A DNA stretch of 64,000 nucleotides from Escherichia coli (lineage in GTDB: Bacteria; Pseudomonadota; Gammaproteobacteria; Enterobacterales; Enterobacteriaceae). The translations under genes were made by a program, and so were the position numbers. Location of the stretch: NCBI RefSeq assembly GCF_045037415.1, contig NZ_CP173438.1. One strand, 5' to 3'. This document shows positions 15,801 to 36,151 of the stretch, piece by piece (the stretch's first letter is position 1; every line of letters begins with the position of its first letter). The notes beneath the pieces are model-generated. The model made no database searches. It was not told the DNA's origin and saw nothing but the letters and a program-made list of their open reading frames with translations.

Positions 15801-16482
15801 AGGAGTGAGTAAAATAACGGGAAATCATACTGCTGGTAATGATGTTACTACCAATAAAGTAATCATTCTGTCCGGCTGAGACGGATGCTAATGCCTGATA
15901 TAAATTTGTAAAAGAGATAATTGTTGCTTTTGGAAATGATTGATGAATTACCTCGTCTGGGGGATAATTTGCTACTCGAGCAATATTTACTGGTTTTGAT
16001 GAGGTAAGCGGTCGCATTGAATCGTGAAGGGTAGTGACCAGCGCCGGAAAGGTAATTATCAGAGGATTAGTTGCAGCAATGTCATCATTAAGAGGCGGCG
16101 AAGCAACTAAATGTGATAACACTATATCAACTTCACCGTCTTCCAGCGCGTCCATTGCTTTTTGATGATCTGCGTATTCCCGGAGTGTTAATTTGATATT
16201 TAACGCTCTTTTTAAAAGATTTAAATAATCAGCATTAATACCACGAATCCGTTGCTGCGAATCGGTATGCAACAACGTAGCTGTTTGGGACTTGTGTACT
16301 GCAATCACAAGATTTTTTTTGCTCGCTAGCCAACGTAATTCCTTGTTGCTCAGACGTAGTGGATCAAGTGTGACACGGTTGTTACTACTGATGCCACGAT
16401 ATTCGATGTAATCTCCGTCTGCGAAACTTATGGTCGACCAAAGACCACAACAGAGAAGAAAAATATAGGGTAAAAACTTCAT
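12889..16482 (-). CDS. evgS: Hybrid sensor kinase EvgS (1197 aa)
   Basis: ORF 1197 aa; periplasmic binding domains, H-box (ATMSHEIRTP), receiver and HPt domains. Confidence 0.95.
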   Translation of the reverse strand: MKFLPYIFLLCCGLWSTISFADGDYIEYRGISSNNRVTLDPLRLSNKELRWLASKKNLVIAVHKSQTATLLHTDSQQRIRGINADYLNLLKRALNIKLTLREYADHQKAMDALEDGEVDIVLSHLVASPPLNDDIAATNPLIITFPALVTTLHDSMRPLTSSKPVNIARVANYPPDEVIHQSFPKATIISFTNLYQALASVSAGQNDYFIGSNIITSSMISRYFTHSLNVVKYYNSPRQYNFLLTRKDSIVLNEVLNRFVDALTNEVRYEVSQNWLDTGNLAFLNKPLELTEHEKQWIKQHPDLKVLENPYSPPYSMTDETGSVRGVMGDILNIITLQTGLNFSPITVSHNIHAGTQLNPGGWDILPAAIYSEDRENNVSFAEVFITTPYVFVMQKAPDSEQTLKKGMKVAIPYYYELHSQLKEMYPEVEWIKVDNASAAFHKVKEGELDALVATQLNSRYMIDHYYPNELYHFLIPGVQNASLSFAFPRGEPELKDIINKALNAIPPSEVLRLTEKWIKMPNVTIDTWDLYSEQFYIVTTLSVLLVGSSLLWGFYLLRSVRRRKVIQGDLENQISFRKALSDSLPNPTYVVNWQGNVISHNSAFEHYFTADYYKNAMLPLENSESPFKDVFSNTHEVTAETKENRKIYTQVFEIDNGIEKRCINHWHTLCNLPASEHAVYICGWQDITETRDLIHALEVERNKAINATVAKSQFLATMSHEIRTPISSIMGFLELLSGSGLSKEQRVEAISLAYATGQSLLGLIGEILDVDKIESGNYQLQPQWVDIPTLVQNTCHSFAAIAASKSIALSCSSTLPERYLVKIDPQAFKQVLSNLLSNALKFTTEGAVKITTSLGHIDDNHAVIKMTIMDSGSGLSQEEQQQLFKRYSQTSAGRQQTGSGLGLMICKELIKNMQGDLSLESHPGIGTIFTITIPVEITQQVAAVEAKAEQPITLPEKLSILIADDHPTNRLLLKRQLNLLGYDVDEATDGVQALHKISMQHYDLLITDVNMPNMDGFELTRKLREQNSSLPIWGLTANAQANEREKGLNCGMNLCLFKPLTLDVLKTHLSQLHQVAHIAPQYRHLDIEALKNNTANDLQLMQEILMTFQHETHKDLPAAFHALEAGDNRTFHQCIHRIHGAANILNLQKLINISHQLEITPVSDDSKPEILQLLNSVKEHIAELDQEITVFCQQND

Positions 16483-16486
16483 GTGG

Positions 16487-17101
16487 TTAGCCGATTTTGT
16501 TACGTTGTGCGAATGTGTAAAGATCCATCAGTGATTTGCATTCTAATTTTTCCATCAAGCGACTTTTATAAGTGCTGACAGTTTTGTTGCTGATGAACAT
16601 TTTTTCAGCAATGTCATTATTATCCTTGCCATCAAGAATATACCGCATGACACTAATTTCTTGTTTCGATAAGGAGTCGAGTTTTTGCTGGTCGGACGTT
16701 AAACTTCCAACAAACCGGTTGAGAGAGAAGGGGAAATAGCAGTAGCCATTTTTTGCAGCTTCAATAGCTGCAATGATATTGTTCATGCCTTCTTTTTTAC
16801 TCACGAAACCATTAGCGCCAGCATCAGCACAATGTTTCCCGTAAAAATGGTCATTTTTAGCGGAGACAATAATAATAATTCCGCTATATTGGCGCTTTCT
16901 CAGCGTTTCTAACACCTGGATACCGTTAACTCCGGGGATATCGACATCAATGATGACGATATCAGGCTTAAGTGTTTCCACCCGCTGAACGGCGCTTCCG
17001 CCTTCAGTCAACTCTGCTAAGATTTCAATATCGTTTTTGATCAATAAATTACGAATTGCTGCGATAGCAAGAGGATGGTCATCAATAATTATTGCGTTCA
17101 T
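16487..17101 (-). CDS. evgA: Response regulator EvgA (204 aa), NarL/FixJ family
   Basis: ORF MNAIIIDDHPLAIAAIRNLLIKNDIEILAELTEGGSAV...; 4-nt gap to evgS. Confidence 0.95.
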   Translation of the reverse strand: MNAIIIDDHPLAIAAIRNLLIKNDIEILAELTEGGSAVQRVETLKPDIVIIDVDIPGVNGIQVLETLRKRQYSGIIIIVSAKNDHFYGKHCADAGANGFVSKKEGMNNIIAAIEAAKNGYCYFPFSLNRFVGSLTSDQQKLDSLSKQEISVMRYILDGKDNNDIAEKMFISNKTVSTYKSRLMEKLECKSLMDLYTFAQRNKIG

Positions 17102-24260: not shown

Positions 24261-24280
24261 ATGGTGTCCCCTGCAGGAAT
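24261..24280. repeat. Distal attachment-site repeat of the argW-integrated element
   Basis: ATGGTGTCCCCTGCAGGAAT is an exact 20-bp copy of the argW 3' end at 36076-36095. Confidence 0.8.
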
Positions 24281-24400
24281 GTGATTAATGAATTAAGAAA
24301 TTGATTTTTATGAATATAAAATTTTTATTGTCATAATTCTATACACTTAGTTATACACATAAGAAAAAATCAGTGATTTTTATGGACTGGGTGTATCTTC

Positions 24401-24490
24401 CCCAGCCCAGCCCAGCCCAGCCCAGCCCAGCCCAGCCCAGCCCAGCCCAGCCCAGCCCAGCCCAGCCCAGCCCAGCCCAGCCCAGCCCAG
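24401..24490. repeat. Pentanucleotide microsatellite (CCCAG)x18
   Basis: Read directly: 90 bp of perfect CCCAG units, then CCCCAACAAA. Confidence 0.95.
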
Positions 24491-24582
24491 CCCCAACAAA
24501 CCTAATGCAGTCTTTAGTTTACAAATTGTTACATATATTATTCGTCAAATTTCATTATTATCAGAGAGGTAATGACTCCAAC

Positions 24583-25086
24583 TTATTGATAGTGTTTTAT
24601 GTTCAGATAATGCCCGATGACTTTGTCATGCAGCTCCACCGATTTTGAGAACGACAGCGACTTCCGTCCCAGCCGTGCCAGGTGCTGCCTCAGATTCAGG
24701 TTATGCCGCTCAATTCGCTGCGTATATCGCTTGCTGATTACGTGCAGCTTTCCCTTCAGGCGGGATTCATACAGCGGCCAGCCATCCGTCATCCATATCA
24801 CCACGTCAAAGGGTGACAGCAGGCTCATAAGACGCCCCAGCGTCGCCATCGTGCGTTCACCGAATACGTGCGCAACAACCGTCTTCCGGAGCCTGTCATA
24901 CGCGTAAAACAGCCAGCGCTGGCGCGATTTAGCCCCGACATAGCCCCACTGTTCGTCCATTTCCGCGCAGACGATGACGTCACTGCCCGGCTGTATGCGC
25001 GAGGTTACCGACTGCGGCCTGAGTTTTTTAAGTGACGTAAAATCGTGTTGAGGCCAACGCCCATAATGCGGGCTGTTGCCCGGCAT
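24583..25086 (-). CDS. insB: IS1 transposase InsB (167 aa)
   Basis: [53 protein letters not shown]..., matches IS1 InsB. Confidence 0.95.
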
Positions 25087-25280
25087 CCAACGCCATTCAT
25101 GGCCATATCAATGATTTTCTGGTGCGTACCGGGTTGAGAAGCGGTGTAAGTGAACTGCAGTTGCCATGTTTTACGGCAGTGAGAGCAGAGATAGCGCTGA
25201 TGTCCGGCGGTGCTTTTGCCGTTACGCACCACCCCGTCAGTAGCTGAACAGGAGGGACAGCTGATAGAAACAGAAGCCAC
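25005..25280 (-). CDS. insA: IS1 InsA (91 aa)
   Basis: [43 protein letters not shown]..., matches IS1 InsA. Confidence 0.95.
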
Positions 25281-25528
25281 TGGAGCACCTCAAAAACACC
25301 ATCATACACTAAATCAGTAAGTTGGCAGCATCACCTATCAGAGATTAACAAGCATTGGCAAAGGTTGTCACTCAGTAATACTCACCATTATTAACTATTA
25401 TTCACCATTATTTAGTATTCAAATTCTTTGAATGAGTTTGAAAGTGCCAGTCTTTACGTATTAATTCTTCTGTGCAAGTATATATACACCCAATAGAGAC
25501 TAATTAAGTCTTAGTATAAATATCTAAT

Positions 25529-25771
25529 GTGAAGGACATAGCCATGAGCTTATTGCCTCGGGAAAACGCACCCCAAAAAAGATATAGACTTCTGAGAATA
25601 TCAGAAGTGATTAATTTGACTGGCTTACCCAAGTCAACAATTTATCTAAAGATAAAGAATGATGAATTTCCGAACCAAGTTTCTATCGGTTCTCGTTCTG
25701 TTGCATGGGTGGAGCATGAAGTTAATGAATGGATAGAGAAGAATATTCTCAATAGAAAATTAAACTCCTAA
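25529..25771 (+). CDS. AlpA-family phage transcriptional regulator (HTH); true start may be the internal Met at 25544
   Basis: ORF 80 aa with YRLLRISEVINLTGLPKSTIYLKIKNDEFPNQVSIGSRSVAWVEHEVNEWI, the AlpA/MerR-like HTH pattern. Confidence 0.75.
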   Translation: MKDIAMSLLPRENAPQKRYRLLRISEVINLTGLPKSTIYLKIKNDEFPNQVSIGSRSVAWVEHEVNEWIEKNILNRKLNS

Positions 25772-25788
25772 ATTGAGGTGGCAAATAT

Positions 25789-26649
25789 ATGGTTGACAAT
25801 GTTTTTAAGAAGAAATTGGCATCAATTAAGAACGAACATGTGTCGGTGTTAGATAGTTACAAAGTAAGATCATTTAAAGAGACTCATAGCGACACGGCCT
25901 GTATTGTGCGTATTATTGAAATATATTCACTGAATAAGCTGCGAGCTAAAGGTGAAAAGCTGTATTCACTTACGGGGTTAACAGTACCTGATACGGAAAC
26001 TGTGGCGAATGAGATCAACCTGCTCCTGAGCCGTTATGCCCAGTTGTGTCGTCAGGAAGAGGAAGAGTTATCTTTCCGGCAGCGTGAAGTGACAAATGCG
26101 GAAGTTGCATGGAAAAGCACATTCTCAAAAAACGGCGTCAGTAGCATTGCTGAAGCCAAAACGAATAAAATGGGGCATGCTGAACGAGCGGATGCTGAAC
26201 GGTATTACCATCTGGCTGTTTCCCGGTTGAATGAACAACATAGTCGATTGAGCACGATCAAGCTTTTGCCGGGAGTACTGGCCGATGAAGGAAACTACAT
26301 TGGGAAGGGAATCGATAAGCGTTTACTGAATATATTTCCTCAATCCGGCCAGATCCCTGCTGATTTTATTTCTGTATTTAATGACAGTGACGTTGTCCGT
26401 GATATTAAATTTATTACTGATGCACTCAAGTCTTTATCTGATTCCGTGAGTGAAATTATTAGTCGTTGTAGCGTTCCAACTGATCGTTATGTATTAAATA
26501 ACGGTGGAATGGCAAGAGCTATGGCTTACAGGGAGTACTATCGAGCAGATAATTATGTATTACGTTCAGTCGTAAGTGACCGGGATTATGTTGAGCATGT
26601 AATGAAATACAATCTGGTTACTGAGTACAAAAATAAAATCTTTTCTTAA
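25789..26649 (+). CDS. Hypothetical protein (286 aa) directly upstream of capsid-like gene; possible scaffold or capsid-remodelling protein
   Basis: ORF track only; consistent coding frame; function assigned by position, not by motif. Confidence 0.5.
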   Translation: MVDNVFKKKLASIKNEHVSVLDSYKVRSFKETHSDTACIVRIIEIYSLNKLRAKGEKLYSLTGLTVPDTETVANEINLLLSRYAQLCRQEEEELSFRQREVTNAEVAWKSTFSKNGVSSIAEAKTNKMGHAERADAERYYHLAVSRLNEQHSRLSTIKLLPGVLADEGNYIGKGIDKRLLNIFPQSGQIPADFISVFNDSDVVRDIKFITDALKSLSDSVSEIISRCSVPTDRYVLNNGGMARAMAYREYYRADNYVLRSVVSDRDYVEHVMKYNLVTEYKNKIFS

Positions 26650-26671
26650 ATACTTAAAAAGGTGAAAAACT

Positions 26672-27676
26672 ATGTATGCCTTCAAAACTGAAAGGCCGGA
26701 CGCAGCACGTCGTTATCATAATAAATTCGTCACTGGCACTAACTATCAGGAAGAATCAAACAGACGCTTTGCATTAAGCGAACCTACTGAAAATATACTG
26801 CGTACCTCAATTCTGGAATCCGGGTGGCTTATTAAAAATATTACCCTACGTGATGTTAACGCCGTGTCAGGTAATGCCGTCAATATTGGTGCCAGTGAAC
26901 TGTATACCGGACGTGTGGATGGTGGCCGTTTCCACAAAAAAATGGCAATCAATGGTACGGAGTTCTTTCTGACAGAGACGGATACCTGCGCCCGGATCAG
27001 CTATTCCGATATGTCTCATATTTACCATACCGGCGTGCCGGATGAGTTTGAGAAAACGGTTGAGAGCTTTTTTGCCCAGGCATATGCGCTGGACATGCTG
27101 CGGGTCGGTTTCAACGGTGTGTCGATTGCAAATACTACAAACCCGGAAATCAATAAAAAAGGCGAGGATGTCAATATTGGCTGGCATGCACTGGCGAAAG
27201 CCTACGGGAACGGAAAGCAAATCATCTCTGAGCCTGTCACTCTGGGAGAGACTGGCACCTGGAAAAATATTGATGCTCTGGCCAACCATCTGATTACAGA
27301 GCTTATTGCTGAGCAGTTTCGTGAAGATCCTCGTCTGGTTGTACTGGTTGGGGCAGAGCTGGCAGCACATCAACGCCTGAAGTTATTTAATGCCGCAGAC
27401 CGCCCGTCTGATGTGAATGCGGCACAGATGGCTACAAGTTCTGTTGCTGGCCGCTTTGCGTTTATTCCCCCGTTTATGCCGGGTAAGCGTCTGGCAGTAA
27501 CGACGCTGGATAATCTGCATATTTACACTCAGGCGATAACACGCTGGTTTCGTGCTGAGTTTGATGATGAAAGCAGTGAATACGTGCATTCCTACCTGCG
27601 CAATGAAGGTTATGCACTCGGTGAACCTGAACTGTACGCGGCTGTTGATGAGTGCACCCTGACGTTTGCGGATTGA
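26672..27676 (+). CDS. P2-GpN-like major capsid protein homolog (334 aa)
   Basis: Blocks FALSEPTENILRTSILES..., MLRVGFNGV...NIGW..., DALANHLITELIAEQFREDPRLVVLVGAEL and TLDNLHIYT align by eye with my recollection of P2 GpN; needs profile confirmation. Confidence 0.45.
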   Translation: MYAFKTERPDAARRYHNKFVTGTNYQEESNRRFALSEPTENILRTSILESGWLIKNITLRDVNAVSGNAVNIGASELYTGRVDGGRFHKKMAINGTEFFLTETDTCARISYSDMSHIYHTGVPDEFEKTVESFFAQAYALDMLRVGFNGVSIANTTNPEINKKGEDVNIGWHALAKAYGNGKQIISEPVTLGETGTWKNIDALANHLITELIAEQFREDPRLVVLVGAELAAHQRLKLFNAADRPSDVNAAQMATSSVAGRFAFIPPFMPGKRLAVTTLDNLHIYTQAITRWFRAEFDDESSEYVHSYLRNEGYALGEPELYAAVDECTLTFAD

Positions 27677-27905
27677 CTTAGCGACAGAAAGACCCGCTCA
27701 GAGGCGGGTTCGTTTACAGCATCAGGAAAAATGAAGAACTATTTTTAAGCAGAGGCTTAAGCATGCCAGCGTTAATTAATCCAGGCAATGATCAGTTTTC
27801 GGTTATAAATTTCTTGCCTCACCAGGAATGCGCGGGATATAGTTTAAAGGTTGCCGCAAAATCGGCAGCCGGGCGTAGGAACCCGTGTTATCTGAAGGCG
27901 ATACT

Positions 27906-27929
27906 ACACGCGCTAGGCGTGTTTTTTTG
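27906..27929 (+). terminator. Rho-independent terminator inside the apparent non-coding leader upstream of the primase operon
   Basis: ACACGC-GCTAG-GCGTGT hairpin followed by TTTTTTT. Confidence 0.55.
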
Positions 27930-28149
27930 TGTCGCAGCTTTGACTCACCTAAAATTTATGGTGTGGTGGCTGATTGTATTTTTTTATTTTTTACGCCACA
28001 TCATCAGAATTATGGTAGTCCAGGCGGGGCAGCTTTCGGGCTGGCCGGTATCCTTCAGAGCCGGTATTCCTACCCCCGTCTGGGCTACCACCCATGAGCG
28101 TAGGAACTCCGGTGGTAGCGTTACCCGCTATCTGAAGGAGGTTGCCATT

Positions 28150-28353
28150 ATGGCTACAGTCCCTGCTTTATCTCACCCTGAATTTACCTTTGTCTTTCTG
28201 GCTGTCCGCCGTACAGACCGTGATGCCCGTCCACGCCCTGTGCGTGTAATCGCAGAATGCGAGCATGCTGCACGCCTTAAACTTGCCACTGAATTTATCC
28301 TGAGCTTTGCTGCCCGTATCCCTGTGAAAAGAGCCGGGGAGGTGGTTGCATGA
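28150..28353 (+). CDS. Small hypothetical protein (67 aa), first gene of a translationally coupled operon
   Basis: ATG at 28150 preceded by GAAGGAGG; stop overlaps next start (ATGA); the 196-aa ORF-track call 27763-28353 is treated as spurious upstream of this Met. Confidence 0.4.
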   Translation: MATVPALSHPEFTFVFLAVRRTDRDARPRPVRVIAECEHAARLKLATEFILSFAARIPVKRAGEVVA

Positions 28354-28586
28354 AATCCATGAATTTTAAGCAAGGCTGCATATTGAGTGAACAGGGGGAG
28401 AGTCGTCTGTTACGGGCGGCACTGGCCAGTGAGTTTCTTGCAGAGGTCTTGTCCGTGCCCACAGTGAATGGAGCGAGAACTGTTTCAGCGGAAGGCGCTG
28501 CGGCTTTAGTGGCCTGTATTGCCGAACAACTGGATGGCGTTGTTAAGGAAACCAGCACAATTAAGGGAGTGATGCGCGATGAATAA
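28350..28586 (+). CDS. Small hypothetical protein (78 aa)
   Basis: ORF track; start overlaps upstream stop and end overlaps next ORF. Confidence 0.45.
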   Translation: MKSMNFKQGCILSEQGESRLLRAALASEFLAEVLSVPTVNGARTVSAEGAAALVACIAEQLDGVVKETSTIKGVMRDE

Positions 28587-28989
28587 TAATCAAAATTTAA
28601 AGGCGCATGCTTTACGAACAGCAGTCTTACGCTACTACATTGCTGATGCATTCATTTCCTTAATGGTGCGTGTTCATAATGAACCTGTTTATATTGAAGA
28701 TGGCGAACGAATAGAACTCTCCCACGAAAAAGTGGTGAGTAATATTATTTACCATATTGAAATGCCGTGGGTGAATGAGTTTGGGGCTGATGCTGGTTGC
28801 ATACTGGCCGCAGAGAAACTGGAAAAAATGCTTAAACCAGGCTTTATGTCAGAAAATATTCGCCTGTCAGTTTTTGGTGTCACAGAGATGCGTGAGGTTT
28901 ACCGGGATATTATTTTCGGAGCACCTGATGGCGAACTACCCGAAGGTTTTGAATTTGTGAAGCCGGAAGGTCAGGAGGTGCTGCTGTGA
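28579..28989 (+). CDS. Hypothetical protein (136 aa) immediately upstream of primase
   Basis: ORF track; 4-nt overlap with primase start suggests coupling. Confidence 0.5.
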   Translation: MNNNQNLKAHALRTAVLRYYIADAFISLMVRVHNEPVYIEDGERIELSHEKVVSNIIYHIEMPWVNEFGADAGCILAAEKLEKMLKPGFMSENIRLSVFGVTEMREVYRDIIFGAPDGELPEGFEFVKPEGQEVLL

Positions 28990-31673
28990 AAACACCGTCT
29001 GTATCCACGATTTCCGGAGCTGCAATTGGGCGCTGGCCTTATATCCTGTCAGCATTAGGTATTAAAGTACCGTCCGCAGGACATCATGGGGCTTGCCCTG
29101 CCTGTGGTGGAAAAGATCGTTTTCGACTGGACGATAAAGCGGGGCGAGGGACGTGGTTTTGTAATCAGTGCGGTCATGGCGATGGTCTTGATCTGGTTCG
29201 TCTGGTGACAGGAAGAAAGATAAAAGAAGTCGCCGGGATGGTATCTGAGGCGCTTGCATTACCAGAAATACAGGAGAAGCCCGCATTGCCAGCCAGGAAA
29301 AAGGCCGCAGGAAAAGAAGCGGGCGCGGAGCGATATACCAGACTCAGACAGCAGTCCTGCAATGGTGAGCCGGTCTATCTGACAAATAAGAGCTTACACG
29401 GGTATTCACTTCCCTTGCTGTCACAGCCTTTGAATCTGGCCGGAATAACATTTTCCACCGGTTCATTACTGCTGCCTTTGACGGATATTTCCGGGAATAT
29501 TACTGGTGGCCAGCTTATCAATCCTGACGGGGATAAAAGTCTGCTGCCCGGTAGCCAGCTGTCTGGCGCATTCATTGCCCTGACCGATATACCCGCTGAA
29601 ACACCTGAACAGGTGATTATCACTGAGGGTTTTGCCACGGCGCTTACCGTCAGTCTGCTGACTGAAGGATGGATCGTGGCGGCTGTCGCTGCCACCAATT
29701 TACTGAAGGTGACGGAGCAGATCCGAAAACGCTGGCCGGAAACCCGGATCATTCTGGCCGGAGATAATGATCTGGCTGACGGCAAAGAAAACACCGGGCG
29801 TATTCAGGCAGAGAAAGCCGCCAAAGCGGTGGATGGCTGGGTAACGCTCCCTCCGGTACGCCATAAGGCTGACTGGGATGATTATCGGCAGGAAGTGGGG
29901 AAAGAACGGGCGAGAGATGCCTTTCGTGAAGAAATGACGCTGCATGGCAAAGGGCAGACCCGTTTACCAGAAGGGTTCCGGCTGACAAAAGAATATTTGT
30001 GGTACGACAAGCTGGTTAATAAGTCTGATGGTGATACAGAGATACGTAATATCAAAATTTGCAGTCCGTTGCGGGTGACGGCAATCACCAGTGATGCTGA
30101 TGGAAGTAATTACGGGCGTTTGCTGGAATGGGAAGATACCAACGGAAACAGCCGTAAATGGGCAATGCCGATGGAGATGCTGGGCGGTAGCGGGGAAGAA
30201 CTGCGCCGCGTTCTGCTGGTTAACGGGCTTTCTTACATCAACATTAACGGCATGGCCAGAGCATTCCTGATGGAATATATCTCGCTGTGTAAACCGGACA
30301 GAAAAGTAACCTGTGTGAATAAAACTGGCTGGCACGGCGGGGTTTACGTTCTCCAGGATGAAGTGATAGGGCGCGAAGCCCAGTCAGTCATCTTACAAAC
30401 ATCGAGTGTGCAGGGGCGTGATTTTCGTGTCAGCGGCACATCAGAGGGCTGGCGTGAAAATATAGGCCGTTATTGCATAAAGAATGCCCGTCTTGCCTTT
30501 GCGGTGAGTCTGGCATTTGCTGCCCCCCTTCTGAAACTGGTTGGTATCGGCGGTGGAGGTTATCACCTCAAAGGGGAATCCACAGACGGTAAAACCACGA
30601 CGATGAAAGTGGCTGCATCAGTATGTGGTGGAACAGATTTCTGGCATACGTGGCGGGCGACGGGGAATGCCTTAGAAGGAACGGCGAGCCGCCGCAATGA
30701 TGCCACGCTGATGCTGGATGAAATCCGGGAGGTTGACGGCAGGGAGGCGGGAAATATCGCTTATATGCTGGCTAACGGGCAGGGCAAAGCCAGAGCCAGA
30801 ACAGATGGTTCGGTAAGGGAAACCAACCGCTGGAATCTGTTGTTTCTGTCTACCGGGGAACTGTCACTGGTAGAGCATGCGGCAAGCGCCGGGGAACGTA
30901 CGTATGCCGGGGTTGAGGTCAGAATGATCCAGATCCCAAGCGATTCGGGCAAGTATGGCGTGTTTGAAGAACTTCATGGCTTCAGTAGCGGGAAAACCCT
31001 GGCTGAGCATCTTGAGCAGCACGTAGCGCATTATCATGGTGCACCATTCCGCGACTGGCTGTATTGCCTGACCGCTGATCTGCCGGAACTGACCAGTCAG
31101 GCGAAAGCCTTATTGAAAGAGTATACCCGAAGGCTGACGCCGGAAAATGCCGGGAATCAGGTTGGCCGGGCTGTTACCCGTTTTGCTCTGGTTGCGATGG
31201 CCGGGGAGCTGGCCACAAAAGCGGGCATCACAGGATGGCCGGAGGGAGAGGCCTTTCGTGCCGCTCAAAGCTGTCTGGCTGCATGGATGGCTGACCGGGG
31301 CCATACAGCTAATCAGGAAGATAAAGCGGCACTTGAACAGGTTCGGGACTTCATGACGCGTAATCAGTTCAGTCGGTTTGCTGACTGGAATGACGACAGG
31401 AACCGGCCTGTTTCAATGATGGGATTCAGAAAAGTCGATAAAGGAGACAACGTGACAGAGCCGGTTGTGACGTTCTACGTTCTCCCGTCAGGCTGGAAGG
31501 AGATCTGTAAGGGATTTGACTCGCGTAAGGTGGCCAGGTTGTGTGTGGACGCGGGCTGGCTGAAACCCGGTGAAGATGGCCGGACGCAAAACAGCATTCG
31601 CCTGCCAGAAATAGGGCTTAAACGTGTGTACCAGTTCAATACACAGGTACTGGGAAGCGCTGAACCTGAGTGA
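28986..31673 (+). CDS. P4-alpha-like zinc-binding primase-helicase (895 aa)
   Basis: N-terminal CPACGG...FCNQCGHGDG zinc-finger pair; Walker A GESTDGKTT; overall satellite replication-protein architecture. Confidence 0.8.
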   Translation: MKTPSVSTISGAAIGRWPYILSALGIKVPSAGHHGACPACGGKDRFRLDDKAGRGTWFCNQCGHGDGLDLVRLVTGRKIKEVAGMVSEALALPEIQEKPALPARKKAAGKEAGAERYTRLRQQSCNGEPVYLTNKSLHGYSLPLLSQPLNLAGITFSTGSLLLPLTDISGNITGGQLINPDGDKSLLPGSQLSGAFIALTDIPAETPEQVIITEGFATALTVSLLTEGWIVAAVAATNLLKVTEQIRKRWPETRIILAGDNDLADGKENTGRIQAEKAAKAVDGWVTLPPVRHKADWDDYRQEVGKERARDAFREEMTLHGKGQTRLPEGFRLTKEYLWYDKLVNKSDGDTEIRNIKICSPLRVTAITSDADGSNYGRLLEWEDTNGNSRKWAMPMEMLGGSGEELRRVLLVNGLSYININGMARAFLMEYISLCKPDRKVTCVNKTGWHGGVYVLQDEVIGREAQSVILQTSSVQGRDFRVSGTSEGWRENIGRYCIKNARLAFAVSLAFAAPLLKLVGIGGGGYHLKGESTDGKTTTMKVAASVCGGTDFWHTWRATGNALEGTASRRNDATLMLDEIREVDGREAGNIAYMLANGQGKARARTDGSVRETNRWNLLFLSTGELSLVEHAASAGERTYAGVEVRMIQIPSDSGKYGVFEELHGFSSGKTLAEHLEQHVAHYHGAPFRDWLYCLTADLPELTSQAKALLKEYTRRLTPENAGNQVGRAVTRFALVAMAGELATKAGITGWPEGEAFRAAQSCLAAWMADRGHTANQEDKAALEQVRDFMTRNQFSRFADWNDDRNRPVSMMGFRKVDKGDNVTEPVVTFYVLPSGWKEICKGFDSRKVARLCVDAGWLKPGEDGRTQNSIRLPEIGLKRVYQFNTQVLGSAEPE

Positions 31674-31699
31674 TTATCGCGTGAGTCTTATTTTTATGA

Positions 31700-31888
31700 G
31701 GTAACACTGGTAACAGAGGTAACACCCGTTACTGATGCGGTTCTTCAGTGTTACCAGTCAAAAATACTGACTGGTAACAGAGGTAACAAAAAATGGTGTG
31801 TTACCACGCGTTACCTCTTGATTTTGCTAACTGGTAACAGATTAAATCCTTTTAAATCAATAGCGTTACACGTGTTACCAGTGTTACA
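31700..31888. promoter_or_regulatory. Iteron cluster, candidate origin of replication of the element
   Basis: At least 12 copies of GGTAACA / TGTTAC(C/A) in both orientations within ~190 bp just 3' of the primase gene. Confidence 0.55.
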
Positions 31889-31955
31889 CGTTCAGAACAA
31901 GAGGTAGGGATCCAAATCCCTTCTTCTGGCGGGCAACAGTATAGGGCACAGAACG

Positions 31956-32228
31956 ATGAAGATGATGAGAATGTACTGCCCCACATGTCAGGCAGTAGCA
32001 CGGATAGGTAAAACAAACAGGAAACACCCACAACTGTACGATGTGTACTGCTATTGCTCTAATGTGGAGTGCGGTCACTCGTTTGTGATGAATGTTGCTT
32101 TCTCCCATTCCGTTAGTCCAAGCGCGCTGAACGGGCAGGGAAGGGTTAAAGAGCTGATTGATGCAATTCCACCCGAGGAACGGGAAAAGGCTTTAAAGTT
32201 GCTGCTGGCTGCGCAAAAGAATGGGTAA
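31956..32228 (+). CDS. Ogr/Delta-family zinc-finger late-gene activator-like protein (about 87-90 aa)
   Basis: ORF MKMMRMYCPTCQAVARIGKTNRKHPQLYDVYCYCSNVECGHSF...; C-x2-C ... C-x4-C spacing typical of Ogr/Delta. Confidence 0.65.
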   Translation: MKMMRMYCPTCQAVARIGKTNRKHPQLYDVYCYCSNVECGHSFVMNVAFSHSVSPSALNGQGRVKELIDAIPPEEREKALKLLLAAQKNG

Positions 32229-32907
32229 AGTATGCGTCGGGAATGGCCGATCTGTTCCCGGAACCTGAACACAGGATTTCAGTTTATACGGTCATAAAAT
32301 TATTATTTTTCAACTGGTTATCTTCTTCATGTTTCACAAACCTTCATAAAATCACACACCTAAAATTAATTATCCATTTAATATCATAGAGTTGCGTATT
32401 CAGGCCATAGATTCGACGGACAGTAAAACTGAAAAAAAATGAATTTCTTTTCATTCTTTTCAGTTCCTGTATCGCAGTACATCTCGAGGACTGGCACGGA
32501 CTGGCGGTATCGTTTGTAAAAAATCCAGGCTGAAAATTTTTAGTGATATGAAAACCGCAGGCGGGTGCGGTGTAGTGCCGTTTTGGTCTGTCGAGCGTAT
32601 ATTTTCCTTTTTCACGATTGCTGCATATCAAAACGAATGTGCAGATATCAGGCCGTGTCAAACCGTGAATCGTGGAGCCTAAATGCCCAAACTACGTTTG
32701 TAGACCTAGCTAGGGGAAGGTTTCCACATATACTGCTACCTATCTTCCAGTCGCTGGTGAGGATCAAGGTAAGCTAACTGGTGAACAAGAAAAGTACTTT
32801 CGTATCTTGCGTACTCGTTTTTTTTGATTAGTATGTACAGGTAGTAACTGGATGGTGAGAATTCGTCATAACTTATCAAATTGCATGATGTTTATAGAGT
32901 ATGAGTA

Positions 32908-33789
32908 ATGAGTCATAATAAAAAGGAATATGCTAAATTTTTCCGTCGCCCCATTTTTTCATCCTTAGCAAAAGGTAAGGATATTTCGGATTTATTTGGG
33001 AGTTTTGATTCTTACTGCTATGAAACACTGTTTTCAAACAATGATAATAATGAACATGAGATTTCACTAAGGGATTTATTTACATCATTATATGATTTTT
33101 TGCGTCTGAATTATAGAAATGAATATGTTTATAAGACAGCACTTGTCAATAAAATAATATTCGGTAAGCACAGCCCAAAAACAAGTTCGTCGTCCATAGA
33201 GTTACCAATTAAAAACTCTATAGTGGATGTTGCGGTGTTTAATGGTACGTCTACAGCTTACGAGATTAAGACAGAGTATGATTCACCAAAAAGGTTGATT
33301 ACTCAAGCCCCTGATTATTTGGATGTTTTTGATAAAGTGTATATAGTTACACATCCAGAGTATGCAAGTAAATATTGTGCTTTAAATCTCCCCAGAGTGG
33401 GAGTTATGGTTTTGAATAAAAAAGATCAATTGAGTGTCATTAAGGAGGCAGATTCAAATATTGATTATATTAAAAGTGACAGCTTGTTTTCAGTTCTTAG
33501 AAAGGAAGAGTTCTTAGCTATAATAGAAGATTACACTTCAACTAAAATAAATATGCCTAACGGATTGGTTTATGAATATTGTAAAGAGATATTCATGCAG
33601 ATGCCATTAAACATAGCAAATAAATACTTTATCTCTGCTATGAAAAAAAGATGTAACGATAAAGTTTTTTTGGATTATATTTATTCTCTTCCAGCATGTT
33701 TACGTGTTTTAGGTTATGCAACACCATTATCAAGAAAGCAAAAAGAATTCATCATGAATTTGATGGATGTAAAAATTAAAATTTGTTGA
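32908..33789 (+). CDS. Hypothetical protein A (293 aa), AT-rich cargo gene with PD-(D/E)xK-like motif
   Basis: ORF track; IVDVAVFNGTSTAYEIKTE (D107 ... E119-x-K121) resembles a restriction-endonuclease-fold catalytic core; strong AT bias unlike flanking DNA. Confidence 0.6.
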   Translation: MSHNKKEYAKFFRRPIFSSLAKGKDISDLFGSFDSYCYETLFSNNDNNEHEISLRDLFTSLYDFLRLNYRNEYVYKTALVNKIIFGKHSPKTSSSSIELPIKNSIVDVAVFNGTSTAYEIKTEYDSPKRLITQAPDYLDVFDKVYIVTHPEYASKYCALNLPRVGVMVLNKKDQLSVIKEADSNIDYIKSDSLFSVLRKEEFLAIIEDYTSTKINMPNGLVYEYCKEIFMQMPLNIANKYFISAMKKRCNDKVFLDYIYSLPACLRVLGYATPLSRKQKEFIMNLMDVKIKIC

Positions 33790-33810
33790 TATCCTCAGGA
33801 GTTGTAAGTT

Positions 33811-34761
33811 ATGTATAGCCCATATTTGTATGCGAGAAGTACAGAGTTATTATGCCTTAGGGACCTCGTTGCGAAGGGAGTTAGCCTAAATGGTCTGCTA
33901 CCAATTTTAGAACCAATTAACGTCAATACGAGAAATTTATTAACATGTTTAAATGTTTGGAATTCTGACATAATTGTTATCCTTAATCCTTATCAGGAAG
34001 ATTTTTCTTCACACAATAACGTCTTAACTTTAAATCAAAATTTATCAAGTGTATTAACAAATAAAAATAATATCATCTCTGGATATCTTATTCAGCCCAA
34101 TACAACGATTAATGATATTAATAATTGGTTGAATGCTAACTTAAATAGACGAGTTGCACTTCTATATGATAATCCATCATTATCCAACTCTGATATTCAG
34201 TTGTTGGCGACAAATCAATTGATTAGTTATCATGTTGTTTTAAATAATAAAATGCTTCCTAATCAGTGCGCTCTTCTTCCTTTGTCGAAGTTAATTATTA
34301 TTAGCGATAACTTTAGAAAGTTAGCAAAAAATGCTGATTATAATGGGCCGGAACTTTTCACGCACGCACATCAATTCGTGGGACAAAATTACTTAGGATT
34401 TGGCGATTATACAATTACTGGCCAGGTACTAGATCTTGGAGGTGGTCAACCTTCTGCTGTTGCCGCACATTTGGTGTTCAAGAATTTACAAGCGAATACA
34501 GTTTGGATTCGTCATTTTGTATCAAGCAACACGCAACGAGGAAGTTCAAATGTTACTGCAAAATTTTTAGATGTTTCAGATCAAATTACAAATCTTGTTC
34601 CCCAACATCCAACCCAGTTTGGCAGCAACATTGGTCTTAACTATTATTATTACAATAGTCAACCAACTGTAAGGCATTTCCCTGGGTTGCCAAAAAACAA
34701 ACAGTATCAAATTACTCACCATATTTGTTTCATGCTGGATTTAATAGCAGGTCGTATTTAA
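33811..34761 (+). CDS. Hypothetical protein B (316 aa), AT-rich cargo gene, Asn/Ser/Leu-rich, no motif I can assign
   Basis: ORF track; AGGAG Shine-Dalgarno 8 nt upstream; 21-bp gap from gene A; 3' end overlaps integrase 3' end convergently. Confidence 0.6.
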   Translation: MYSPYLYARSTELLCLRDLVAKGVSLNGLLPILEPINVNTRNLLTCLNVWNSDIIVILNPYQEDFSSHNNVLTLNQNLSSVLTNKNNIISGYLIQPNTTINDINNWLNANLNRRVALLYDNPSLSNSDIQLLATNQLISYHVVLNNKMLPNQCALLPLSKLIIISDNFRKLAKNADYNGPELFTHAHQFVGQNYLGFGDYTITGQVLDLGGGQPSAVAAHLVFKNLQANTVWIRHFVSSNTQRGSSNVTAKFLDVSDQITNLVPQHPTQFGSNIGLNYYYYNSQPTVRHFPGLPKNKQYQITHHICFMLDLIAGRI

Positions 34762-35916
34762 TAAGCTAGCGTACCATTCCATCATTACTTGTCGATCTTT
34801 AATATATTGCGCATGATTGTAAGTACCTCGAATAGAGTTCTTATCAACATGCGCAAGCTGCATTTCAATCCAGGCACTTTCAAACCCATGCTCATGCAAG
34901 ATGGTGCTCATGGTATGCCTGAAACCGTGACCCGTTAACCGACCGTGATAACCCAGTAGTTTTATCACTTTGTTGATGCTGGCTTCGCTCATTGGTTTAC
35001 TGACGTCATTCCGGCCAGGGAAAACGAGGCTGTAATTCCCTGTTATTTCTTGCAGCTTTTTCAGGATATTGATCGCCTGAGTTGATAACGGAACCAGATG
35101 GGGGCGGCGTTTCTTCATCCGTTCTTTGGGGATCTCCCATAAGGCATTATCTAAATCAAACTCAGCCCATTCCGCTGCACGTAGTTCAATTGTTCGCACG
35201 CCTGTTAGCATCAACAGCTGCGTGGCGTATTTGGTAACTAAACTGCCCTGATAGTTATCCAGAGCATTAACGAACTCGGGCAACTCGCTTTCAGTCAGGA
35301 ACGGGAAGTGTTGGGTTTTAGGTTTGTTGAGTGCGATAGCTAAATCGGGTGCAAAATTATACTTTGCTCTACCAGTGGCAACAGCATAACGAAGCACTTC
35401 ACCACAGCGGCGGCGGATCTTACTGGTTTGCTCTAGCGCACCTCTTTTCTCTATTTTTTGCAGGACGGTTAGCAGTTCTAATGGTTCAATCTGCTCAATT
35501 GGGCGCTGGCCGATAAAAGGAAAAATATCCTTTTCCATACAATTGAGAACCTCTTTTGCATAACCCTCTGACCAGGTGGCTTTTTTCGATGAGTGCCATT
35601 CTCTGGCCACAGACTCAAAGCTGTTCTCATGCGCGAACTGCAAAGCAATCTTATCTGCTTTTCTGGCTTCACTTGGGTTTATCCCGTTGGCTAACATCGA
35701 ACGCGCTTCATCACGTTTGGTACGTGCCTGTGCCAACGACACATCGCCATATACGCCAAAGGAAATCATCTTAGGCTTACCTGCAAAGCGATAGCGAAAA
35801 CGCCAGCCTTTACTGCCCGCTGTGTCGATCAGGAGTGATAGCCCCATACCATCGTTAAGCGTATAGGGTTTGTCCTTCGGTTTTGCTCTTTTTATTTGGA
35901 TGTCAGATAGCAGCAT
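34741..35916 (-). CDS. P4-family tyrosine integrase (391 aa)
   Basis: ORF 407 aa trimmed to MLLSDIQIKRAKPKDKPYTLNDGMGLSLL...; C-terminal HxxR ... Y catalytic pattern; adjacent to tRNA. Confidence 0.85.
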   Translation of the reverse strand: MLLSDIQIKRAKPKDKPYTLNDGMGLSLLIDTAGSKGWRFRYRFAGKPKMISFGVYGDVSLAQARTKRDEARSMLANGINPSEARKADKIALQFAHENSFESVAREWHSSKKATWSEGYAKEVLNCMEKDIFPFIGQRPIEQIEPLELLTVLQKIEKRGALEQTSKIRRRCGEVLRYAVATGRAKYNFAPDLAIALNKPKTQHFPFLTESELPEFVNALDNYQGSLVTKYATQLLMLTGVRTIELRAAEWAEFDLDNALWEIPKERMKKRRPHLVPLSTQAINILKKLQEITGNYSLVFPGRNDVSKPMSEASINKVIKLLGYHGRLTGHGFRHTMSTILHEHGFESAWIEMQLAHVDKNSIRGTYNHAQYIKDRQVMMEWYASLLNTTCY

Positions 35917-36075
35917 GTGTATAGAAAAAAGATCGAACTCAGTTATACACAATGTTATACGCAAAGATGTATAGATTCCATTAGAAATAATGGTACTTTG
36001 CTGGACGAGTATAAGGAGATGATATCAGTTAAAACAGTGAGTTATGGAATTAATTGAACTTAGTGAGAAGTGTTC

Positions 36076-36095
36076 ATGGTGTCCCCTGCAGGAAT
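36076..36095. repeat. tRNA-proximal attachment-site repeat (overlaps argW 3' end)
   Basis: ATGGTGTCCCCTGCAGGAAT, identical to 24261-24280. Confidence 0.8.
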
Positions 36096-36151
36096 CGAAC
36101 CTGCAATTAGCCCTTAGGAGGGGCTCGTTATATCCATTTAACTAAGAGGAC
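36077..36151 (-). tRNA. argW: tRNA-Arg (anticodon CCU)
   Basis: Reverse complement reads GTCCTCTTAGTTAAATGGATATAACGAGCCCCTCCTAAGGGCTAATTGCAGGTTCGATTCCTGCAGGGGACACCA; cloverleaf with CCU anticodon and T-arm GGTTCGATTCC. Confidence 0.9.

Follow-up and report, generated by a model that had tools for sequence, protein, structure and literature searches.

What is a capsid gene doing in a phage satellite of the P4 type? Canonical P4 has none, as an earlier note on this DNA had pointed out, and the question is raised by a satellite of about 11 kb, with a P4-like backbone by its gene content, that is integrated at the argW tRNA gene in a stretch of 64,000 nucleotides from Escherichia coli (contig NZ_CP173438.1, assembly GCF_045037415.1; the whole stretch is called the window below). 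Two adjacent open reading frames (ORFs) on the plus strand of this island, both with an ATG start, encode a protein of 286 amino acids (aa) at 25789-26649 and, directly downstream, a 334-aa relative of the P2 major capsid protein GpN at 26672-27676, exactly where the note had placed them. We call the first the partner and the second the capsid protein. From the sequence comparisons we lean slightly towards the view that the two genes form a head-morphogenesis module, in which the partner would be a scaffold peculiar to the satellite and the small capsids that are assembled or re-sized would suit its 11-kb genome. The satellite thus probably builds or reshapes the shell in which it travels. A complete capsid gene would have been captured long ago from a P2-like phage of the ESSI-2 type, replacing the sid and psu genes of P4, together with a helical partner that is specific to the lineage.

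The capsid protein and its partner

The 334-aa product matches Pfam PF05125 (Phage_cap_P2) with E 1.2e-66 over model positions 16-326 of 327 and PHROG 70, 'major head protein', with E 1.8e-86, and RefSeq already names the gene 'P2 family phage major capsid protein'. Its match to NCBIfam TIGR01551 (E 2e-60) reaches 204.6 bits, a little below the curated equivalog cut-off of 219.65, and by its sequence the protein is a member of a diverged subclade of that family. In alignment it is 23% identical overall to P2 gpN, and the motif blocks that the earlier note had listed (F..EP....L.....ES, GFNGV...V..GW, DAL.....N.LIE....EDP.LVV.VG and L.NL.IY) do line up with gpN. Among the sequences of the Protein Data Bank (PDB) it matches the phiRSA1 capsid 7oz4 (E 3.6e-21) and P2 gpN in the P4 procapsid 7jw1 (E 2.7e-16). 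An AlphaFold2 (AF2) model of the protein (predicted local distance difference test, pLDDT, 83.1; predicted template modelling score, pTM, 0.83) has gpN 7jw1 as its best Foldseek match (E 1.7e-21, TM 0.62-0.74), followed by phiRSA1 7oz4 (E 2.5e-19), with TM values of 0.6-0.74 over 304-346 alignment columns for these two structures. Encapsulins and other HK97-fold capsids rank lower, and they include the SaPIbov5 procapsid 7rwz and the capsid 9gyi of EcCI2, a capsid-forming phage-inducible chromosomal island (cf-PICI). Judged by the model, the protein is a complete HK97-fold capsid protein with the full fold retained, and not a fragment.

Among phages, the closest capsid proteins come from ESSI-2-type Peduoviridae (Cronobacter phage ESSI-2, Escherichia phages ESSI2_ev015/040/129/239 and Yersinia phage vB_YenM_324), with 47-50% identity over more than 90% of the length; the alignment with the 340-aa protein of ESSI2_ev015 is colinear and gives 48% identity over 326 residues. 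In a neighbour-joining tree the capsid proteins of the satellites group as a single clade (83 of 100 bootstraps), and the phage proteins of the ESSI-2 type are its sister group. The proteins of this clade have a distinct N-terminal arm of their own and are without the C-terminal extension of the phage proteins. The branching within it roughly tracks the host families, and a single clade of this kind fits one old capture.

The partner-capsid module was found in seven further satellites, from Yersinia ruckeri (L004), Providencia (L006), Kosakonia (L008), Pectobacterium (L016), Salmonella (L009 and L018) and E. coli EC12 (L019), which makes eight elements in six genera. In all eight a partner of about 280 aa stands ahead of the capsid gene. 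The common order is AlpA, partner, a capsid gene of 328-339 aa, other genes, primase, Ogr/Delta, cos, variable defence cargo and integrase. The two Salmonella elements have another backbone, with an integrase of the Int_N type to the left of the module and no Pfam match for AlpA; L018 has a gene for a helix-turn-helix (HTH) repressor as well, and both carry a separate 'Derepression' gene (PF25738). Homology of the partners of L004, L006, L009 and L018 to the E. coli family was seen with hhalign at probabilities of 98.2-100%. The earlier note had singled out the 286-aa protein as one of unknown function, and to this its strict linkage to the capsid gene can now be added.

The place that the partner holds is that of a scaffold. 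In P2, in ESSI2_ev015 and in a Brenneria prophage the gene ahead of the capsid gene encodes the GpO scaffold (266-284 aa), and in the satellites this position is taken by the partner, which is of similar length. The Brenneria capsid homologue (P0225) belongs to a complete P2-like prophage, which also has GpO, portal and terminase. In the satellites of Yersinia, Providencia and Pectobacterium the capsid gene is immediately followed by a gene of 169-177 aa with the GpO_N domain PF05929 (L004 11011-11532, L006 11017-11550, L016 3563-4072), close to the N-terminus of the ESSI2 scaffold. These proteins are the protease half of GpO without its scaffolding half, and they keep the Asp, His and Ser that align with D19, H48 and S107 of P2 GpO, which we take to be the catalytic triad. 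A GpO_N protein that has lost the scaffolding half leaves the scaffold role open for the partner. The islands of Escherichia, Kosakonia and Salmonella have no stand-alone GpO_N gene, and tblastn revealed neither a GpO homologue nor a remnant of its protease in the window.

The partner itself is a conserved protein family in its own right, to judge from its homologues, its selection and its predicted fold. We found 105 homologues, 43-100% identical, within Enterobacteriaceae, and every one of them is named 'hypothetical'. A profile search of 1.84 billion representatives gave 53 partner clusters and no more, in which complete members have 276-308 aa and the shorter ones are fragments. The AF2 model is confident (pLDDT 87.4, pTM 0.82) and shows an all-alpha protein with long helices; no specific fold neighbour came out of the structure search. 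There is no match in Pfam, NCBIfam, PADLOC or the PDB sequences, one marginal match in PHROG (E 0.002), and in 50,697 phage records no tblastn match even at E <= 1. Between the window and EC12 the ratio of non-synonymous to synonymous substitution rates (dN/dS) is 0.23 in the partner gene and 0.17 in the capsid gene, and against Kosakonia the capsid gene gives 0.13; purifying selection acts on both. The partner is the more diverged of the two, with 45% identity against 72% for the capsid protein in the same pair of elements.

A kinship of the partner with GpO, Sid or Psu, for which the earlier note had suggested a check, did not hold up in BLASTP and profile comparisons. The hhalign probability is 0.6% for Sid and 0.3% for Psu. 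As a diverged GpO (PF05929) the partner fails as well, with no Pfam match, a BLASTP E of 1.4 against the ESSI2 scaffold, and hhalign probabilities of 0.1-0.5% against P2 gpO and the ESSI2 scaffold. A C-terminal capsid-binding motif shared with phage scaffolds was also looked for; both tails are basic and then hydrophobic, and since no consistent motif runs across the partners the resemblance was not used. What we propose is that the partner is a scaffold or size determinant specific to these satellites. One further protein, of 886 aa (P0267), has five separate regions that match the profile of the partner (E 2.6e-8); it may be a fused relative, or else the match may be an artefact of repeats or coiled coils.

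The cos region and the probable helper

A non-coding stretch of 680 bp follows the Ogr/Delta gene of the island and holds an ESSI-2-type cos region (32424-32605, plus strand). Its one match in the phage collection is to the last ~145 bp at the end of ESSI-2-like phage genomes. The 19-nt core at 32557-32575, GCAGGCGGGTGCGGTGTAG, is identical in all eight satellites examined, and it contains the 15-nt sequence GCGGGTGCGGTGTAG, which is present at both ends of the linear ESSI-2 record just as the 19-nt cohesive end is present at both ends of the P2 record. Upstream of the core, CTGAAA/TTTCAG repeats are common to the satellites and ESSI-2. P2 and P4 share cos, and by analogy with this pair 32424-32605 is read as a helper-type cos site. 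A blastn search found no cos of the P2/P4 type in the window; an exact match of 16 nt at 27969-27984 was discounted, as it falls outside the cos core. The Ogr/Delta-type zinc-finger late activator (31956-32228, plus strand; phrog_603, E 2e-31) shares 52% identity with the Ogr-like protein of ESSI2_ev015 and only 21% with P4 Delta.

Since the capsid protein, Ogr/Delta and cos are all of the ESSI-2 type and no P2/P4 cos is present, the helper is probably an ESSI-2-like phage and not P2, and the same ESSI-2-type Peduoviridae are probably also the donor of the capsid gene. The suggestion of a satellite that carries its own capsid gene stands, with a complete capsid fold of the P2 family, while the link to a helper of the P2/P4 kind that came with it gives way to ESSI-2 on all three points (48% identity, 52% identity and the 19-nt core). 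The sizes are in keeping with such a pair: the satellite, without its insertion sequence, has ~11.0 kb and the helpers 28.8-30.9 kb, a ratio like that of P4 to P2 (11.6 and 33.6 kb). ESSI-2-like phages have been reported to cross genera, and their prophages to be scarce in E. coli and present in Salmonella, Citrobacter and Enterobacter (PMC6969025).

Two observations on cos stand somewhat apart. In the Salmonella satellite L018 (~16390-16530) the repeats upstream of the invariant core are TTGCAA/TTGCAC instead of CTGAAA/TTTCAG, which may reflect a different specificity of the terminase small subunit. Three short, unannotated 'phage' records from samples of Salmonella Kentucky and E. coli O157, OR850886.1 (7,841 bp), OR850877.1 and OR845435.1, hold the best match to the cos region (76.8%) and a capsid gene of the ESSI-2 type, and they might be fragments of a helper or of a packaged satellite.

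Of 5,426 complete E. coli genomes, 441 (~8%) have the two-gene block with a coverage of at least 80%. Strains of O25b:H4-ST131 are among the carriers and 420 of the 441 copies are at least 99% identical, so many of them are probably clonal. None of the deposited phage and satellite records covers more than 9% of the island core.

The island at argW and its known relatives

The island spans 24261-36095, with 20-bp direct repeats, ATGGTGTCCCCTGCAGGAAT, at both ends; they are the longest exact repeat shared by the tRNA region and the dsdC-proximal region. The left copy, attL (24261-24280), repeats the 3' end of the tRNA-Arg gene. The right one, attR (36076-36095), lies in tRNA-Arg(CCT) argW (36077-36151, minus strand), where ARAGORN, the Rfam tRNA model and the repeat agree on the boundary. 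The genes dsdC and yfdC flank the island, and the same placement is seen in many complete E. coli genomes. The earlier description of the element as satellite-like is borne out by the att repeats together with integrase, AlpA, primase, origin, Ogr/Delta and cos.

The left arm is non-coding. Just inside attL it has a perfect pentanucleotide array, (CCCAG)×18.6 at 24401-24493, which yields a spurious 'PSPAQ' repeat ORF (24373-24648) and could be a contingency tract or one of variable copy number. Further in lies an IS1 of 768 bp (24568-25335), flanked by the 9-bp duplication TATCAGAGA at 24559-24567 and 25336-25344; the otherwise identical island of strain SA186 is without it. An upstream element, TTCTGTGCAAGTATATATACACCC (25440-25500), contains a TGT-N12-ACA dyad at 25471-25488, upstream of alpA. 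Its surroundings are conserved in the Providencia and Kosakonia relatives and the dyad is not, and the pattern is not enriched (19 occurrences, 15.8 expected). The element is possibly a regulator-binding site for the operon.

The operon begins with an alpA-type regulator or excisionase (25544-25771, plus strand), the first gene of the alpA-partner-capsid run, which matches phrog_2790 and phrog_66, 'excisionase and transcriptional regulator'. RefSeq starts it at the ATG at 25544, and the ORF finder offers a GTG at 25529 (an ORF of 80 aa). In relatives the slot has a match to PF05930 (Phage_AlpA), and an HTH regulator is annotated there in L001 and L019. Only 17 bp separate alpA from the partner gene and 22 bp the partner from the capsid gene.

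Downstream of the capsid gene lies an immunity region of the P4 type (27763-28353, plus strand) whose DNA is 71% identical to the P4 cI region in blastn. The 196-aa ORF that fills it is annotated as a 'host cell division inhibitor Icd-like protein' (NF033153), and it overlaps three Rfam matches: c4-a1b1 (RF03163) at 27837-27889 with 43.8 bits, just below the gathering score of 46.7, isrK (RF01394) at 27850-27927 with 68.9 bits, and the C4 antisense RNA (RF01695) at 28008-28095 with 81.1 bits against a gathering score of 45. These three make up a P4/P1-type RNA immunity locus, and much of the ORF may thus be non-coding. Two small genes of 78 and 136 aa follow (28350-28989, plus strand; phrog_38507 and phrog_5991). 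The second, ahead of the primase, is like DUF5375 and P4 orf106, and its equivalent is annotated DUF5375 in L019, L008 and L016. The primase/helicase (28986-31673, plus strand) has Zn-ribbon, Toprim and DUF927 domains (phrog_1139, E 4.5e-185); its N-terminal third is 38% identical to P4 alpha over 325 aa, and DUF927 makes up the C-terminal part. Directly 3' of it, more than ten GGTAACA/TGTTACC iterons, read from the letters, mark a putative replication origin (31695-31895), with a tandem array detected by TRF at 31699-31725 inside the block.

Between cos and the integrase lies a hotspot for defence genes, in which the cargo differs from relative to relative. In the window it holds genes of the sce7726 (NF033832) and sce7725 (NF033831) families (32908-34761, plus strand; PADLOC 'cll'), and the sce7726 protein has a local identity of 39% to P4 cII. 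In the two Yersinia hotspots (L004 16383-18346 and L005 16343-18242) the cargo consists of a HATPase_c_3 pair and a DndB-like pair; Providencia (L006 16322-17914) has Kiwa KwaAB, Kosakonia (L008 16264-19199) a Shedu SduA_C protein, Pectobacterium (L016 9539-11436) retron Ec48, and E. coli EC12 (L019 16960-18857) SLATT with a reverse transcriptase. The island closes with a tyrosine integrase of the P4 type (34741-35964, minus strand), 40% identical to P4 Int over 406 aa and annotated in L001 as well; the RefSeq coding sequence, of 1176 bp, is shorter and lies inside this ORF.

The likeness to P4 is thus considerable. Both have about 11 kb, one third of the helper's genome, and both use a P4-type integrase to insert at a tRNA gene and have AlpA, immunity by C4/CI RNA, a DUF5375 gene followed by a primase with an alpha-like N-terminal part, and an Ogr/Delta activator. 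In P4 the order is psu, cos, gop/beta/cII and int, and in the island cos likewise adjoins the defence hotspot beside int. The differences lie in the head genes, in the layout and in the helper. The island has a capsid gene and its partner and is without sid, psu or a recognised epsilon (blastn of the whole P4 genome against the window gave the cI region only, and none of the small ORFs matched an epsilon derepressor family in NCBIfam or PHROGs). The layout of P4 is divergent whereas that of the island is colinear, from alpA through head module, immunity, primase, delta, cos and hotspot to int, and P4 has cos and Ogr of the P2 type whereas those of the island are of the ESSI-2 type. Of the seven core components in the P4-like model of SatelliteFinder (int, alpA, alpha, epsilon, sid, delta and psu) four were found, namely the P4-type integrase, AlpA, the alpha-type primase and Delta, which is below the described A-C types.

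The ESSI-2-type Peduoviridae (Seongnamvirus and Quadragintavirus) are the nearest phage relatives of its capsid protein, its Ogr, its cos region and the GpO_N proteins of its relatives, but they are complete myoviruses of 29-31 kb with scaffold, portal, terminase and tail genes, and they have no homologue of the partner. Searches against NCBIfam and PHROGs gave no portal, head-tail adaptor or connector, terminase or protease family among the ten ORFs between AlpA and the integrase, and no tail genes in the island.

A satellite with a capsid gene is a departure from P4, as the earlier note had it, but not one without precedent. SaPIbov5 Ccm and PmCI172 are HK97-fold homologues of the helper capsid protein that are carried by satellites and implicated in small capsids (PMC6092414, PMC6893505). 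Like the island these satellites have no portal or terminase genes, and they are conceptually the closest cases; hosts, helpers and capsid families differ, the role in the island is a predicted one, and its capsid gene always comes with a helical partner of about 280 aa, in some lineages also with a GpO protease domain. The cf-PICIs, such as EcCI2, have an HK97-fold capsid of their own and helper tails, with a head and packaging module of protease/scaffold, portal, head-tail adaptor and connector, terS and terL (PMC10085698). In the island the head genes are the capsid gene and the partner only and cos is of helper type, the EcCI2 capsid 9gyi is a distant fold match, and the lack of portal, connector and terminase genes sets it outside the cf-PICIs. 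EcCICFT073 is an E. coli island with int, alpA, primase and a capsid homologue, c1499, which lambda mobilises in full-size capsids (PMC6092414). Identity with c1499 was rejected (BLASTP E 0.91), as it belongs to a different capsid family and has a head-decoration gene after it. Neither the surveys of P4-like elements nor a 2024 review mentions a capsid gene in them. An incomplete literature search found no work that links ESSI-2 phages with satellites or describes the partner-capsid family, and a prior description is possible.

What the two genes may do

We imagine the life of the satellite as follows. When an ESSI-2-like phage infects or is induced, the satellite would excise and replicate from its iteron origin, and alpA, partner and capsid gene would be expressed. 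Capsid protein and partner would bind each other and assemble, alone or mixed with the helper capsid protein, into small procapsids matched to the 11-kb genome. These would form on helper portals and be matured by the helper GpO, or by the satellite GpO_N protein where there is one; the E. coli island would use the helper protease. The helper terminase would then package the satellite DNA by way of the shared helper-type cos, and helper tails would complete the particle.

Several points speak against such a role for the module. No similarity of the partner to Sid, to Psu or to any scaffold could be detected, and its proposed role is drawn from position, linkage and helical architecture. The evidence for activity of the satellite consists of signatures in its sequence (att, ori and cos), and upstream of the operon no canonical Ogr box (TGT-N12-ACA) is conserved in four relatives. 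The copy in the window has IS1 about 200 bp upstream of alpA, which could affect expression of alpA, partner and capsid gene, and the E. coli element is without a protease, portal or terminase of its own. ESSI-2-like head modules occur in only 29-48 of the 5,426 complete E. coli genomes, in line with the rarity of such prophages in this species (PMC6969025), against ~8% for the satellite, and most of the satellite copies, at least 99% identical, may be largely clonal.

Of the alternatives, the one that survives best is a chimeric shell, as with Ccm, to which we give perhaps a minor share of the probability. The satellite protein would take specific positions, for example the pentons, among helper subunits and change the curvature so that a small capsid results, with the partner assisting or stabilising it. 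SaPIbov5 Ccm is a capsid homologue that redirects size (PMC6092414, PMC6893505), and the fold matches include the SaPIbov5 procapsid 7rwz. The identity of 43-52% to capsid proteins of the ESSI-2 type, with highly conserved core blocks, makes co-assembly plausible, and in favour also is that the E. coli element has no protease and scaffold of its own. The distinct N-terminal arm and the missing C-terminal extension, as well as the protease that some relatives bring along, suggest instead that assembly is self-contained.

Less likely is a decoy, in which capsid homologue and partner would poison or sequester the head assembly of the helper, for example by titrating GpO or the portal, and thereby protect the host population. 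Interference with the capsid assembly of the helper is common among satellites (PMC6092414), the element has a defence hotspot, and with helpers so rare in E. coli a benefit in defence could maintain it. But a helper-type cos that is perfectly conserved in all eight satellites, and a conserved size of 11 kb, argue that packaging and transfer are what is selected, and a full-length fold with low dN/dS over the whole protein exceeds the needs of a decoy interface.

About as doubtful, or slightly more so, is a partner that has nothing to do with heads and merely shares the operon, as a regulator (a derepressor of the helper or an anti-repressor) or a replication accessory. It does follow alpA after the 17-bp gap in an operon that begins with a regulator, no epsilon-like derepressor is recognised in the E. 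coli element, and the structural similarity to a scaffold is lacking. Against this, the partner accompanies the capsid gene on two backbones, one with the P4-type integrase and one with the Int_N-type integrase and HTH repressor, and as the Salmonella backbones carry a separate PF25738 'Derepression' gene the partner is not an analogue of epsilon. It also has the position and the length of a scaffold, and was never met without the capsid gene in the loci examined. A decaying P2-like prophage without present function, finally, might be read from the single P2-family structural gene in the window and the IS1 in the left arm, and conservation effectively excludes it, with a module kept in eight elements of six genera, intact ORFs in more than 440 E. 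coli genomes, dN/dS of 0.13-0.23, a monophyletic satellite capsid clade and intact att, ori and cos.

Beyond the head-morphogenesis module itself we offer a wider and more tentative hypothesis, for which the odds are somewhat against us. The islands could be a distinct and widespread kind of 'half capsid-forming' satellite on a P4 backbone, which makes the whole small shell from its own capsid protein, has a scaffold or size determinant without kinship to GpO, Sid, Psu and CpmB, and obtains portal, terminase and tail from helpers of the ESSI-2 type. If this is true, they would stand in evolution between P4, without any head genes, and the cf-PICIs with their full head module, and would be a further, independently evolved solution to the control of capsid size.

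P4 is the satellite of the textbooks, and according to a 2024 review P4-like satellites have very few genes in common with their helpers, with no protein for subverting the helper among them (PMC11389934). The partner-capsid lineage contradicts that statement, with a captured helper capsid gene and a partner in the place of Sid and Psu on a P4-like backbone. With four of the seven P4 core components the family seems to fall outside current models for the detection of satellites, and yet it is common: it occurs in ~8% of the complete genomes of E. coli and extends to five further genera at least, and it ferries varied anti-phage systems in its hotspot. The ESSI-2-like phages are the specific group to which the search for its helpers is pointed, and the partner is a candidate capsid-assembly factor of a new type.

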